Below are positions 44,901 through 50,900 of a stretch of 64,000 nucleotides of DNA, piece by piece. Location of the stretch: assembly GCF_029227855.1 (NCBI RefSeq), contig NZ_CP074356.1; one strand, 5' to 3'. Position 1 is the stretch's first letter, and every line of letters begins with the position of its first letter. Made by a program: the position numbers. Source of the DNA: Escherichia coli (GTDB lineage: Bacteria; Pseudomonadota; Gammaproteobacteria; Enterobacterales; Enterobacteriaceae).

Positions 44901-47900
44901 ACCGTCGGTATCACCGAGAAACCGTCTGCAGAGTTTCTGGCTCGCCTGGGTGAGCGCTATGGTTTCACCCCACCTCATGCACCTGGACATGCTGCAATTG
45001 CCAGCATGCAAGCAATATGTACGGGGCAGGCTCGAGCATTGATCTGCATGGGGGGCAACTTTGCTCTGGCAATGCCAGATCGGGAAGCGAGCGCTGTACC
45101 GTTAACACAATTAGATCTGACGGTACACGTAGCCACTAAGCTTAACCGCTCTCATCTGCTGACCGCACGGCATAGCTATATTCTGCCGGTTCTGGGACGC
45201 AGCGAGATTGACATGCAAAAAAGCGGTGCGCAGGCGGTAACCGTTGAGGATTCAATGTCGATGATTCATGCCTCGCGTGGCGTGTTAAAACCCGCCGGTG
45301 TAATGCTGAAATCAGAGTGTGCAGTGGTCGCGGGAATCGCGCAGGCAGCACTACCCCAGAGCGTGGTAGCCTGGGAGTATCTAGTGGAAGATTATGATCG
45401 CATTCGCAATGACATTGAAGCTGTGCTGCCAGAGTTCGCCGACTATAACCAGCGCATCCGTCATCCCGGTGGTTTTCACCTGATAAATGCAGCTGCTGAA
45501 AGGCGCTGGATGACGCCGTCAGGTAAGGCTAATTTCATTACCAGTAAAGGGCTGTTAGAAGATCCCTCTTCAGCGTTTAACAGTAAGCTAGTCATGGCGA
45601 CAGTACGCAGTCACGATCAGTACAACACGACGATTTATGGTATGGATGATCGCTATCGAGGGGTATTCGGTCAACGAGATGTGGTCTTTATGAGTGCTAA
45701 ACAAGCTAAAATTTGCCGTGTAAAAAACGGCGAAAGAGTTAATCTTATTGCGCTTACGCCAGACGGTAAGCGAAGCTCACGCCGCATGGATAGATTAAAA
45801 GTGGTCATTTACCCTATGGCTGACCGCTCACTGGTGACCTATTTTCCAGAATCGAATCACATGCTAACACTTGATAACCACGATCCATTAAGTGGCATTC
45901 CTGGCTATAAAAGTATTCCGGTTGAATTAGAACCATCAAATTAATTCGCCTCCTCATTTCTTCTGCTGTCATCCGCACAGCAGAAGAATTTCTCATTGAC
46001 CATTGTCGCGCAATTTACTCACATGTGCTAAATTAAACTGCTCGTTATAAGATATATACCTCCGCCTACAGCTGTAAGAAACTCCGCTCAGTACTGAAGC
46101 GCCAGTCCTATTTCCTCTATTCTCCAGCCTGTTATATTAAGCATACTGATTAACGATTTTTAACGTTACCCGCTAAATAAACATATTTGAAATGCATGCG
46201 ACCACAGTGAAAAACAAAATCACGCAAAGAGACAACTATAAAGAAATCATGTCTGTAATTGTGGTTGTCTTATTACTGACACTTACGTTGATAGCCATTT
46301 TTTCGGCAATTGATCAGCTGGGTATTTCAGAAATGGGTCGCATTGCAAGGGATCTTACACATTTCATTATCAATAGTTTGCAAGACTGAAAATAAACAGC
46401 AAATTATAAATATGAAATGTTAAAAAAGTATCGATAAAAACTTTATTGTTTTAAGGAGATAAAATGTCGCTCGTTTGTTCTGTTATATTTATTCATCATG
46501 CCTTCAACGCTAACATTTTAGATAAAGATTACGCCTTCTCTGACGGCGAGATCCTGATGGTAGATAACGCTGTTCGTACGCATTTTGAACCTTATGAGCG
46601 GCATTTCAAAGAAATCGGATTTAATGAAAATACCATTAAAAAATATCTACAATGCACTAACATCCAGACAGTGACGGTGCCTGTTCCTGCGAAGTTTTTA
46701 CGTGCTTCAAATGTACCGACTGGATTGCTTAATGAAATGATTGCTTATCTCAACTCGGAAGAACGCAATCATCATAATTTTTCAGAACTTTTGCTTTTTT
46801 CTTGCCTGTCTATTTTTGCCGCATGCAAAGGTTTCATTACACTATTAACTAACGGTGTGCTATCCGTTTCCGGGAAAGTGAGAAATATTGTCAACATGAA
46901 GCTGGCGCACCCATGGAAGCTGAAAGATATTTGTGACTGCCTGTACATCAGTGAAAGCCTGTTGAAGAAAAAACTTAAGCAAGAGCAAACGACATTCTCA
47001 CAGATTCTTTTAGATGCCAGAATGCAGCACGCAAAAAATTTGATACGCGTAGAAGGTTCAGTCAATAAAATTGCCGAACAATGTGGTTATGCGAGTACAT
47101 CTTATTTTATTTATGCGTTCCGCAAACATTTTGGCAACAGTCCAAAGAGAGTTTCTAAGGAGTACCGTTGTCAAAGGCACACGGGTATGAATACGGGCAA
47201 CACGATGAATGCTTTAGCTATTTGATTATTTGCTAACGAGTAGTCAACCATACACGCTACGTAAGAATTAAATGGGGCAGCTATTCCCTGCCCCGCGTTG
47301 TTTTTAGGCGATATATTTATTGAAATAAATAAGTGACATTCATCACATATTTATGCATTTGCATAACCTGTTGCATGATTATTTATGATCTCAATTCGGA
47401 ATTTTGTCAGTAAAACACAATAATTTATTAAATATCAATAGATTAGTTGTTTATCTGCGAGAAATTACTTAGTAGAACAGAAAGTAATGTCAACAGTTTA
47501 TGGACTGTTATTTCTCTTTTTTTAGCTAAATCTGCTATCTCTTTATGTGACTAACTTCACTTACATCCACTTATTTCTCTTCGTAAAATTACTTTGGAAT
47601 TAAGTACAATAAGAAGAGGAACATTTATGAAGTCTGCATTAAAGAAAAGTGTCGTAAGTACCTCGATATCTTTGATACTGGCATCTGGTATGGCTGCATT
47701 TGCTGCTCATGCGGCAGATGATGTAAAGCTGAAAGCAACCAAAACAAACGTCGCTTTCTCAGACTTTACGCCGACTGAATACAGTACCAAAGGAAAGCCA
47801 AATATTATCGTACTGACCATGGATGATCTTGGTTATGGACAACTTCCTTTTGATAAGGGATCTTTTGACCCAAAAACAATGGAAAATCGTGAAGTTGTCG

Positions 47901-50900
47901 ATACCTACAAAATAGGGATAGATAAAGCCATTGAAGCTGCGCAAAAATCAACGCCGACGCTCCTTTCATTAATGGATGAAGGCGTACGTTTTACTAACGG
48001 CTATGTGGCGCACGGTGTTTCCGGCCCCTCCCGCGCCGCAATAATGACCGGTCGAGCGCCCGCCCGCTTTGGTGTCTATTCCAATACCGATGCTCAGGAT
48101 GGTATTCCGCTAACAGAAACTTTCTTGCCTGAATTATTCCAGAATCATGGTTATTACACTGCAGCAGTAGGTAAATGGCACTTGTCAAAAATCAGTAATG
48201 TGCCAGTACCGGAAGATAAACAAACGCGTGACTATCATGACAACTTCACCACATTTTCTGCGGAAGAATGGCAACCTCAAAACCGTGGCTTTGATTACTT
48301 TATGGGATTCCACGCTGCAGGAACGGCATATTACAACTCCCCTTCACTGTTCAAAAACCGTGAACGCGTCCCCGCAAAAGGTTATATCAGCGATCAGTTA
48401 ACCGATGAGGCAATTGGCGTTGTTGATCGTGCCAAAACACTTGACCAGCCTTTTATGCTTTACCTGGCTTATAATGCTCCGCACCTGCCAAATGATAATC
48501 CTGCACCGGAGCAATATCAGAAGCAATTTAATACTGGTAGTCAAACAGCAGATAACTACTACGCTTCCGTTTATTCTGTTGATCAGGGTGTAAAACGCAT
48601 TCTCGAACAACTGAAGAAAAACGGACAGTATGACAATACTATTATTCTCTTTACCTCCGATAATGGTGCGGTTATCGATGGTCCTCTGCCGCTGAACGGG
48701 GCGCAAAAAGGCTATAAGAGTCAGACCTATCCTGGCGGTACTCACACCCCAATGTTTATGTGGTGGAAAGGAAAACTTCAACCCGGTAATTATGACAAGC
48801 TGATTTCCGCAATGGATTTCTACCCGACAGCTCTTGATGCAGCCGATATCAGCATTCCAAAAGACCTTAAGCTGGATGGCGTTTCCTTGCTGCCGTGGTT
48901 GCAAGATAAGAAACAAGGCGAGCCACATAAAAATCTGACCTGGATAACATCTTATTCTCACTGGTTTGATGAGGAAAATATTCCATTCTGGGATAATTAC
49001 CACAAATTTGTCCGTCATCAGTCAGACGATTACCCGCATAACCCCAACACCGAGGACTTAAGCCAATTCTCTTATACGGTGAGAAATAACGATTATTCGC
49101 TAGTCTATACAGTAGAAAACAATCAGTTAGGTCTATACAAACTGACGGATCTACAGCAAAAAGATAACCTTGCCGCCGCCAATCCGCAGGTCGTTAAAGA
49201 GATGCAAGGCGTGGTAAGAGAGTTTATCGACAGCAGCCAACCACCGCTTAGCGAGGTAAATCAGGAGAAGTTTAACAATATCAAGAAAGCACTAAGCGAA
49301 GCGAAATAACTAAACCTTCATGCGGCGGATTTTTCCGCCGCCTTATTGAGCGAGATAGCGATGCACGTTACAGCCAAGCCCTCCAGTTTTCAATGTAATC
49401 TCAAATGTGATTACTGTTTTTACCTTGAAAAAGAGTCGCAGTTTACTCATGAAAAATGGATGGATGACAGCACTCTGAAAGAGTTCATCAAACAATATAT
49501 CGCAGCGTCTGGCAATCAGGTCTATTTTACCTGGCAAGGCGGTGAACCCACTCTGGCTGGCCTGGATTTTTTCCGTAAAGTTATTCACTATCAACAACGC
49601 TATGCAGGCCAAAAACGTATTTTTAATGCATTACAAACGAATGGCATTTTATTGAATAATGAATGGTGTGCCTTTCTCAAAGAACATGAGTTTCTGGTTG
49701 GTATCTCGATCGATGGACCCCAGGAGCTACATGACCGTTACAGACGCAGTAATTCTGGTAACGGTACTTTTGCAAAAGTGATAGCAGCCATCGAGCGTCT
49801 GAAATCATATCAAGTAGAGTTTAATACGTTAACCGTCATTAATAACGTCAATGTCCATTACCCTCTTGAGGTTTATCATTTTTTAAAATCTATCGGCAGT
49901 AAACATATGCAATTTATCGAATTGCTAGAAACCGGGACGCCGAATATTGATTTCAGTGGTCATAGTGAGAACACATTCCGTATCATTGATTTTTCTGTGC
50001 CTCCTACGGCTTATGGCAAGTTTATGTCGACCATTTTTATGCAATGGGTTAAAAACGATGTGGGTGAAATATTCATCCGTCAGTTTGAAAGCTTTGTCAG
50101 CCGTTTTTTGGGGAATGGGCATACCAGTTGTATTTTCCAGGAGTCCTGCAAGGATAATCTGGTTGTTGAAAGTAATGGAGACATTTACGAATGCGACCAT
50201 TTTGTCTATCCACAGTACAAAATTGGAAACATTAATAAATCTGAACTTAAAACGATGAACAGTGTACAACTGACAGCGCAAAAAAAACGGATTTCTGCGA
50301 AATGTCAGCAATGTGCATATAAACCTATCTGCAATGGCGGTTGCCCTAAGCATCGTATTACTAAAGTAAACAATGAGACTGTTTCTTATTTTTGCGAAGG
50401 TTATAAAATCCTTTTTTCAACCATGGTACCTTATATGAACGCCATGGTGGAGTTAGCTAAGAACAGAGTACCGCTTTACCACATCATGGATGTTGCAAGA
50501 CAAATGGAGAATAATTAATAACGCTCCCTCTTTGCTCCAGTCTTAGCTTCGTTCTTATGGCCTTAACAAGACACCCGACATAAATTACTGTTGGGTGTTT
50601 CGTCATCATCATCTTCCCTTGCGAAAATTCTGGCTTACGTGGCATGCGTCAGGGCATTAGCAATACCCTTGATTATCAATAGCATAACCGTAACCATTGA
50701 AAATAAAAAATTTCTTTATATTTCATAATATTAAATGACACTTAAATAAATTTCATCAGTAAATCATTGCCATAGATAATCATTGGATGGCACAATCAAT
50801 TTTCGCTAATGATAACCATTCCCATTACGTTTCGTATGTTGATAGCAAAGTATCTCTGTCTGCTGAAGCCCTTTTGGCTGCGTAAGAATAATAAAACTTC

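Follow-up and report, generated by a model that had tools for sequence, protein, structure and literature searches.

What does the ydeN-ydeM gene pair of Escherichia coli encode, and what is the role of the GC-rich hairpin that separates its two genes? We addressed this question on a 64,000-nucleotide (nt) stretch of E. coli DNA (RefSeq assembly GCF_029227855.1, contig NZ_CP074356.1), referred to here as the window. An initial annotation, made from the sequence alone, had described a sulfatase gene followed by the gene for a radical S-adenosylmethionine (radical-SAM) maturase homologue, with a hairpin in between. That observation is confirmed, and its interpretation as a sulfatase-maturase pair is supported; the pair itself is already known and annotated. 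It has reportedly been recognised since a 1998 survey of bacterial sulfatases and is said to be annotated in every E. coli genome. We consider it quite likely that ydeN and ydeM form a self-contained operon for a periplasmic serine-type (Ser-type) sulfatase and its dedicated activating enzyme, in which the hairpin acts as a leaky terminator, as a protector of the 3' end, or as both. The elements concerned are as follows.

47627..49309, + strand: ydeN, precursor of a periplasmic Ser-type formylglycine-dependent sulfatase; open reading frame (ORF) of 560 amino acids from ATG to stop, RefSeq coding sequence (CDS) 'ydeN sulfatase-like hydrolase/transferase', with Pfam, PDB and AlphaFold evidence.
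49322..49341, + strand: GC hairpin with an 8-bp stem and a UUUU loop, GCGGCGGA-UUUU-UCCGCCGC; eight perfect pairs, seven of them GC, -16.2 kcal/mol.
49361..50518, + strand: ydeM, cytoplasmic anaerobic sulfatase-maturating enzyme (anSME) of the radical SAM/SPASM type; ORF of 385 amino acids from ATG to stop, RefSeq CDS 'anaerobic sulfatase maturase', with TIGR03942 and PDB 4K36 evidence.

The coordinates initially given for both genes and for the hairpin are all exact, and the ORF bounds equal the RefSeq CDS of a 100%-identical genome. An alternative ydeM start in the ORF list, TTG 49346, was dropped: RefSeq starts the gene at ATG 49361, and it is this codon that lines up with residue 1 of all orthologues. 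The sequence around the pair is E. coli chromosome: a 3.4-kb stretch matches strain JNEC-KY178 at 100% and K-12 at about 98% identity, and both genes occur in 5322 of 5426 complete E. coli genomes (98%; coverage of the stretch at least 80%). On the RefSeq map of E. coli, the pair is flanked by ydeP-safA-ydeO upstream and yddA-yddB-pqqL downstream.

YdeN had been proposed to be a sulfatase bearing a signal peptide, and both parts of this proposal are borne out. The protein matches the Pfam Sulfatase family PF00884 over the full-length profile (1-301; E 1.3e-70), and 71 PDB sulfatase sequences match it at E<1e-10, the best being S1 sulfatases (E 3e-52). Its AlphaFold model (mean confidence, pLDDT, 90) adopts the sulfatase fold and superimposes on S1_19 structures with a TM-score of 0.80, normalised on the target. 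Two stretches of the gene define the type of enzyme and its predicted location.

48020..48055, + strand: formylglycine signature S132-G-P-S-R-A-A-I-M-T-G-R, Ser-type; read directly, and aligned with the C/S of S1_19 structures.
47627..47713, + strand: predicted Sec-type signal peptide, residues 1-29, with cleavage after A-H-A; from sequence features and orthologue architecture.

The formylglycine-target motif, whose absence the initial annotation had named as an argument against its reading, is present: YdeN fits the signature (C/S)-x-P-x-R followed by x3-(L/M)-T-G-(R/K), with Ser at the modified position. Whether this residue is Cys or Ser had been put forward as a check; it is Ser132, and a Cys-type reading is excluded because the whole protein contains no cysteine. 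The SGPSR core is invariant in 16 orthologues. The S1 catalytic set is complete (D66, D67, K183, H185, H286, D345, N346 and K364), and all of these residues other than K183 are invariant across 36 relatives, down to 31% identity. No NCBIfam sulfatase equivalog scored above its cutoff for YdeN; the arylsulfatase equivalog NF010322 gave 124 bits against a cutoff of 481. After the metal-binding motif DDLGYGQ, YdeN carries an insert of 25-35 residues (approximately residues 78-108, window ~47858-47950), which is modelled with high confidence as helical. This insert is common to YdeN orthologues and to relatives at 31-45% identity, is absent from S1_19 structures, and has no bearer among the solved structures. 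Most relatives in that identity range are Cys-type (22 of the 25 inspected).

The N-terminus has Lys at positions 2, 6 and 7, a hydrophobic core at approximately residues 8-25 and then A27-H28-A29; read for a twin arginine and for a lipobox, it contains neither. Orthologue N-termini are variable in sequence and similar in build, and the first 46 residues of YdeN are disordered in the AlphaFold model. These features agree with published descriptions of YdeN as periplasmic (PMC10746267) and with its recovery in vesicles of a tolA strain (PMC7973035). Published data additionally report the protein in anaerobic rumen-fluid cultures.

YdeM, described initially as a radical-SAM enzyme resembling anSMEs, passes the curated equivalog TIGR03942 with 505 bits (cutoff 349.45; profile positions 1-362 of 363) and aligns over residues 4-359 with the crystal structure of Clostridium perfringens anSMEcpe (4K36; E 5e-63). 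The ten-residue motif quoted in the initial annotation corresponds to residues 12-21. A SPASM domain is recognised by PF13186 (E 3.5e-6), and the cluster-binding elements map as follows.

49394..49417, + strand: radical-SAM cluster motif C12-x3-C16-x2-C19; aligned to anSMEcpe and invariant in 16 orthologues.
50129..50395, + strand: SPASM region with auxiliary-cluster cysteines C257, 263, 278, 328 and C315, 318, 324, 345, together with Asp279; aligned to anSMEcpe.

All 11 Fe-S ligand cysteines of anSMEcpe are kept in YdeM, and these cysteines and Asp279 are invariant in 16 YdeM orthologues; the sole non-ligand cysteine, C103, varies. Judged from this alignment, YdeM is a complete anSME, with the CX3CX2C motif and two auxiliary 4Fe-4S sites. 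No hydrophobic stretch or export signal was seen at its N-terminus.

How tightly are the two genes bound to each other, and to their surroundings? YdeN was used as the query in an orthologue scan with one genome per species. Orthologues were found in Escherichia, E. albertii, Leminorella, Citrobacter werkmanii, Cedecea, Mixta, Grimontia, three Anaerobiospirillum, Psychromonas and three Fusobacterium assemblies. All complete orthologous loci recovered, which range from Escherichia to Fusobacterium, have ydeN followed by a ydeM homologue on the same strand, so that the pairing is obligatory across phyla; the catalytic and cluster-binding residues are kept down to 47-55% identity. The flanking genes, by comparison, differ in each genus and include ThiI, N-acetyltransferase, DHDPS-family, GH4, M48 peptidase, GAPDH, pyridoxal-phosphate-dependent decarboxylase, flavoprotein and histidine kinase genes. 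Across the orthologous loci, neither a conserved neighbour hinting at a substrate nor a conserved small precursor-peptide gene beside the pair was found. On this comparison, ydeNM is a self-contained two-gene module that has probably moved horizontally. The initial annotation had placed the pair inside an acid-stress and iron-regulated neighbourhood. As a map position this holds, but it says nothing about function: at pH 4.4, ydeN drops about 40-fold, alongside mal, xyl and lamB genes (PMC10746267), and because the flanks differ in every other genus, the E. coli neighbourhood is incidental.

Two further observations concern these loci. Throughout loci L005-L017, the sulfatase is more conserved than the maturase (YdeN versus YdeM: E. 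albertii, 96% versus 87.5%; Leminorella, 84% versus 69%; Anaerobiospirillum, 72% versus 50%). Locus L004, on contig JARKOR010000108.1 of a 'Candidatus Nanosynbacter' metagenome-assembled genome, encodes a YdeN and a YdeM that are 99.8% and 99.2% identical to those of the E. coli window; the bin has almost certainly been contaminated with E. coli DNA here.

The hairpin lies within the 51-nt spacer, 12 nt past the ydeN stop, with 19 nt left between it and the ydeM ATG. Perfect 8-bp stems with six or more GC pairs occur five times in the window (four distinct loci) against 0.43 in shuffles, an approximately tenfold excess, and the chance expectation for a GC hairpin in a given 51-nt spacer is about 3e-4. 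Its sequence is unique in the window (a single match, allowing up to three mismatches), and the junction is found at a median of one place per E. coli genome; identity as a repetitive extragenic palindromic (REP) or other repeated element was dropped on these single-copy grounds. An Rfam E-value search of 46000-51500 returned only two sub-threshold chance hits; one of them, isrK, on the minus strand over the hairpin, was rejected at 20 bits against a gathering score of 50.

An equivalent hairpin is present in seven gammaproteobacterial lineages (E. coli, E. albertii, Leminorella, Mixta, Citrobacter, Cedecea and Grimontia). It starts 10-18 nt past the ydeN stop codon, and 14-20 nt remain between its end and the ydeM ATG. 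It folds with -12 to -18 kcal/mol and has a T-rich tail after it, yet the stem sequences differ, so that what is conserved is the structure. In E. albertii, compensatory changes keep nine pairs. In an N-padded hand alignment of these seven sequences (A2), itself fitted to the structure, 98% of cells are paired and 5 of 14 pairs have changed on both sides; sliding the partner column lowers this count to 0-1. In a MAFFT alignment (A1) the inner stem pairs lost register; RNAalifold run on this alignment, as an unfitted control, recovered the same helix. Among 5340 E. coli records, 5159 (97%) have the 121-nt junction at 99% identity or more, and the whole 3.4-kb region is mostly 95-99% identical. 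These comparative data are the strongest evidence for the hairpin and support its being a functional RNA element. That the hairpin is conserved in other bacteria and looks like a leaky terminator is the one undocumented detail of the ydeNM pair. The spacers of other lineages vary, Anaerobiospirillum having 250-520 nt between ydeN and ydeM.

The tail that follows the stem bears directly on this reading.

49342..49348, + strand: weak U-rich tail CUUAUUG; 4 T in 8, tail score -2.77.

The initial description of a GC hairpin between the genes stands; in E. coli the element is not a canonical terminator, its U-tract being weak. Several points weigh against our interpretation. The E. coli tail, CTTATTGA, has four T, below the minimum of five in eight for a canonical intrinsic terminator; its score of -2.77 falls in the top 14% of random 15-mers; and the terminator scan did not call the ydeN-ydeM hairpin. 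The curated Term-seq set of Adams et al. 2021 contains no ydeN 3' end, and the TERMITe supplementary tables have no 3' end at the ydeN-ydeM locus. The operon was barely expressed, being nearly silent, in the media concerned (~30 reads); with so few reads, the missing 3' end is weak evidence. The covariation count comes from an alignment fitted to the structure. Fusobacterium, with a spacer of 25-31 nt, has no hairpin, which implies that the hairpin is not essential to the module. As for the enzyme, no report of formylglycine at Ser132 or of any YdeN activity was found in the literature searched, and the initial remark that the substrate is unknown agrees with the published statement that it is unreported (PMC10878103).

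Other lineages offer stronger tails. Leminorella (-4.6) and Grimontia (-5.0) have canonical T-tracts in the top 0.4% of random 15-mers, the tails of Mixta and Citrobacter are good, and these four together range from -3.7 to -5.0; at least five T in eight are present in the Leminorella, Citrobacter, Cedecea and Grimontia orthologues. The Escherichia tails are the weakest of the seven lineages, at -2.8 in E. coli and -2.5 in E. albertii.

Which signals might drive and end transcription of the pair? Upstream of ydeN, three candidate elements were identified.

47332..47347, + strand: candidate distal CRP-like site AGTGACATTCATCACA; TGTGA-N6-TCACA with one mismatch, right half conserved in E. albertii.
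47546..47561, + strand: candidate proximal CRP-like site TGTGACTAACTTCACT, class II geometry; TGTGA-N6-TCACA with one mismatch, block identical in E. albertii.
47560..47589, + strand: candidate sigma-70-like promoter CTTACA-18-TAAAAT for ydeNM; consensus scan, 9/12 matches, conserved in E. albertii.

Matches to TGTGA-N6-TCACA with at most one mismatch number five in the 64-kb window, where about two are expected, and two of the five fall in the 400-bp ydeO-ydeN spacer. The proximal one has its centre about 42 nt upstream of where the promoter-like hexamers would put the start. Matches of 9/12 to the promoter consensus are not enriched over shuffles; CTTACA-18-TAAAAT is the only plus-strand candidate upstream of ydeN. 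Neither the 3' end of ydeN nor the 51-nt spacer contains a promoter-like site for ydeM, and an internal ydeM promoter was accordingly dropped. A scan of 47226-47640 for the AraC pattern TAGC-N7-TCCATA gave only 7/10 matches, the best at 47523-47539, which equals the chance rate of about 3 per 415 bp; no site is claimed.

According to published work, ydeM is co-transcribed with ydeN, AraC targets ydeN directly and binds upstream only with arabinose, and an araC mutant shows derepression of ydeN (PMC10878103, PMC3738151). Expression of ydeN also falls under envelope stress (PMC2731931), and the sulfonated azo dye FD&C Red 40 induced ydeN and no other gene, although ydeN was not needed for reduction of the dye (PMC10653809). 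Published responses of ydeN transcripts cover araC deletion, diet, azo dye and pH. The candidate CRP-like sites fit the joint fall of ydeN with the mal, xyl and lamB genes, and transcription of ydeNM appears to be catabolite- and arabinose-controlled rather than governed by acid or iron.

The ydeO-ydeN spacer (47226-47626; GC 0.31) has another GC hairpin at 47273-47295, just past ydeO, and is very AT-rich below it. This hairpin is probably the ydeO terminator, because it was called terminator-like on both strands.

At the far end of the operon, published data place a termination region within ydeM.

50470..50485 (~50477), + strand: published Rho-termination region, approximate; Adams et al. 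2021, supplementary file 2, MG1655 1579674(-), internal to ydeM, Rho score 3.37.

This region, mapped to the window via the MG1655 ydeM coordinates 1579633-1580790, lies 41 nt before the ydeM stop; with bicyclomycin, reads rise about 9-fold downstream of it and about 3-fold upstream. The entry indicates that some transcription runs through ydeM and suggests that the operon ends Rho-dependently, in line with the scan finding no intrinsic terminator-like site between ydeM and yddA.

Taken with established anSME and AtsA/AtsB biochemistry (said to come from Szameit 1999, Marquordt 2003, Benjdia 2008 and Goldman 2013), these elements would assemble into the following scheme. In the cytoplasm at low oxygen, YdeM with S-adenosylmethionine would abstract the C-beta hydrogen from Ser132 of unfolded pre-YdeN, yielding formylglycine. 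The modified precursor would then be exported by Sec and lose its signal peptide after Ala29. In the periplasm, the hydrated formylglycine and a metal site formed by Asp66, Asp67, Asp345 and Asn346 would hydrolyse a sulfate ester, the substrate probably being a sulfated sugar. At the RNA level, the hairpin may act as a leaky terminator, a 3'-end protector or both. ydeM would be made by read-through, because only 19 nt separate the stem from its ATG and no promoter-like site lies there. The ribosome-binding site of ydeN is strong (AGAGGA) and that of ydeM weak (GAG); together with the hairpin, this arrangement may give much sulfatase and little of the catalytic maturase.

A bolder version, to which we give little credence, would make YdeNM a horizontally mobile, self-sufficient cassette from an uncharacterised, insert-bearing S1 branch related to galactose (Gal)/N-acetylgalactosamine (GalNAc)-4-O-sulfatases, with which E. 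coli and gut-associated anaerobes would desulfate host or dietary glycans in the periplasm. The hairpin would then be a translation-sensitive attenuator, ydeM being transcribed in proportion to ydeN translation; since it starts 10-18 nt past the stop, a ribosome terminating on ydeN could hinder its formation.

Two other explanations concern the hairpin. It may not terminate transcription at all but serve purely as a barrier to 3' exonucleases, so that, once the message is processed or undergoes Rho-dependent decay, its ydeN portion lasts longer than its ydeM portion, an effect of the kind that the malE-malF REP element has. We regard this as unlikely, though it deserves serious attention: the stem is very stable, the Escherichia U-tract is poor, neither Term-seq resource records a terminator at the hairpin, and a Rho-dependent end at ydeM would yield 3' ends for exonucleases to chew back. 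The good T-tracts of Leminorella, Grimontia, Citrobacter and Mixta would be needless for a pure stabiliser, but the two roles are not exclusive. Alternatively, the Escherichia hairpin could be the decaying relic of an ancestral ydeN terminator, with no present effect on expression, as might be thought from its two tails being the weakest and from Fusobacterium doing without the element. Yet the E. coli stem is perfect, the compensatory changes of E. albertii preserve its pairing, and the junction is less variable than the surrounding genes across the 5340 records, which makes decay improbable. Action as a leaky terminator, as a 3'-end protector or as both remains our preferred account of the hairpin.

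Doubts of a different kind concern the proteins. The pair could be cryptic in E. coli, kept but effectively silent or unable to make active sulfatase naturally. Very low expression in standard media (~30 reads), the lack of any reported substrate or activity (PMC10878103), the description of sulfatase maturation in E. coli as still not understood (PMC8379841) and occasional disruption, as by IS2 in ydeM of strain B1W1, all fit such a view. It is nevertheless a poor prospect in our estimation, as 98% of complete genomes keep both genes, their catalytic and cluster-binding residues are intact and invariant among orthologues, the protein has been detected in anaerobic rumen-fluid cultures and in vesicles, and its transcripts respond to the conditions listed above. 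Very improbable is the proposition that YdeM is a SPASM maturase of peptides that are made on the ribosome and modified after translation (RiPPs), or that YdeN belongs to the alkaline-phosphatase superfamily but is no sulfatase, being for instance a phosphonate-monoester hydrolase. YdeM does match the RiPP-maturase models DynA, DarW, DarE and YhhB (E 1e-64 to 6e-45), the RefSeq name of YdeN is a cautious one, and YdeN exceeds no sulfatase equivalog cutoff. However, every RiPP model scores well short of its cutoff, whereas YdeM clears that of TIGR03942 by 155 bits, the loci have no conserved precursor-peptide gene, the invariant SGPSR beside an anSME in every orthologue is what sulfatase maturation predicts, and the best sequence and fold matches of YdeN are all bona fide sulfatases. 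The reading of ydeNM as a Ser-type sulfatase with its own activating enzyme thus stands.

Comparison with known systems refines this reading. Among the closest is AtsA/AtsB of Klebsiella pneumoniae, the reference Ser-type sulfatase and its iron-sulfur maturase, which shares with YdeNM the Ser in (C/S)xPxR, a Sec signal peptide and periplasmic location, and an adjacent gene for a cytoplasmic radical-SAM/SPASM maturase in the operon. These properties of AtsA/AtsB are reported in Szameit 1999 and Marquordt 2003. The differences are that ydeNM has the sulfatase gene first, whereas atsB precedes atsA in Klebsiella; that YdeN belongs to a different subfamily from arylsulfatases such as AtsA, because its NF010322 score is far below the cutoff; and that ydeNM appears to be controlled by AraC and CRP, in contrast to sulfate starvation for AtsA/AtsB. 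With anSMEcpe (PDB 4K36-4K39), YdeM shares CX3CX2C, the eight auxiliary cysteines and the Asp adjoining the third of them. Naturally, anSMEcpe acts on a Cys-type sulfatase, whereas the YdeM partner is Ser-type; anSMEs reportedly accept both types (Benjdia 2008).

For the hairpin, the parallels are the rplL-rpoB attenuator and the malE-malF REP, which are intra-operon attenuating terminators or stabilising hairpins. In these systems, too, a stable GC stem-loop separates co-transcribed genes needed in unequal amounts, the downstream gene being reached by read-through. The ydeNM hairpin differs from the malE-malF element in being no REP but unique and single-copy per genome, with no experimental 3' end recorded in Adams 2021 or TERMITe.

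As to the substrate, the best sequence and fold matches of YdeN are the SulfAtlas S1_19 carrageenan galactose-4-sulfatases (ZgCgsA, 9HH2/9HH3; PsS1_19A/B, 6B0J/6PSM), with which its catalytic residues align, and the next best are the S1_16 Gal/GalNAc-4-sulfatases BT3796 and BT3057. A Foldseek search with the YdeN model gave E 3e-34 at 26-28% identity to S1_19/S1_16. S1_19 enzymes are natively Cys-type (9HH3 has CGPSR; 9HH2 is a Ser mutant) and sit in marine polysaccharide loci, unlike YdeN with its Ser and its free-standing two-gene operon. The resemblance to S1_19 is nearest-neighbour evidence, the low identity and the insert arguing for caution over S1_19 membership.

The closest non-orthologous relative of YdeN is P0008 (43% identity), which has the same insert and likewise adjoins a radical-SAM/SPASM gene; P0008 is Cys-type with the maturase upstream, whereas YdeN is Ser-type with the maturase downstream. 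The metagenomic cluster of P0008 also encodes a second sulfatase, a KdgM-family porin, a PF10022 protein, a tagatose-type aldolase (PF01116) and a PfkB kinase, a context that suggests catabolism of sulfated oligosaccharides; ydeNM lacks such sugar-utilisation partners. The S1_19/S1_16 and P0008 neighbours are substrate leads, not assignments.

Some further observations were made on the locus. In strain B1W1, the IS2 insertion splits ydeM. In some E. coli strains the match to the 3.4-kb stretch stops early, with the M16 peptidase gene pqqL coming straight after ydeM, which implies that yddA-yddB has been lost, and eight matches to the stretch lie on records typed as plasmids. A 40-amino-acid ORF on the minus strand (50484-50606) runs antisense to ydeM over the final 35 nt of that gene; it is named YneP in K-12 and 'hypothetical protein' in the identical strain. 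Upstream of yddA, a promoter-like site at 50767-50796 overlaps a core, GATAATCATT, resembling part of a Fur box; this candidate core matches about 12 of 19 consensus positions by eye and is compatible with the iron-regulated neighbourhood of the initial annotation, on the downstream side. A phage-resistant K-12 mutant carries a secondary ydeM mutation, C345F (PMC7260982). As C345 (50393-50395) is an auxiliary-cluster ligand by alignment, that strain probably lacks functional YdeM.

For a pair already annotated, these results add little beyond bookkeeping; what they contribute is the assignment of YdeN as definitely Ser-type, the strictness of the two-gene module across phyla, comparative backing for the hairpin as a functional RNA element and the candidate CRP sites. 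The conserved hairpin predicts a ydeN-only transcript, and the Ser type means that active YdeN needs co-expression of ydeM under anaerobiosis. As leads, expression is to be sought without arabinose or glucose, with Gal/GalNAc-4-sulfates as the first substrate candidates. The substrate of YdeN matters to the question of whether E. coli can draw on sulfated glycans of its host in the gut.

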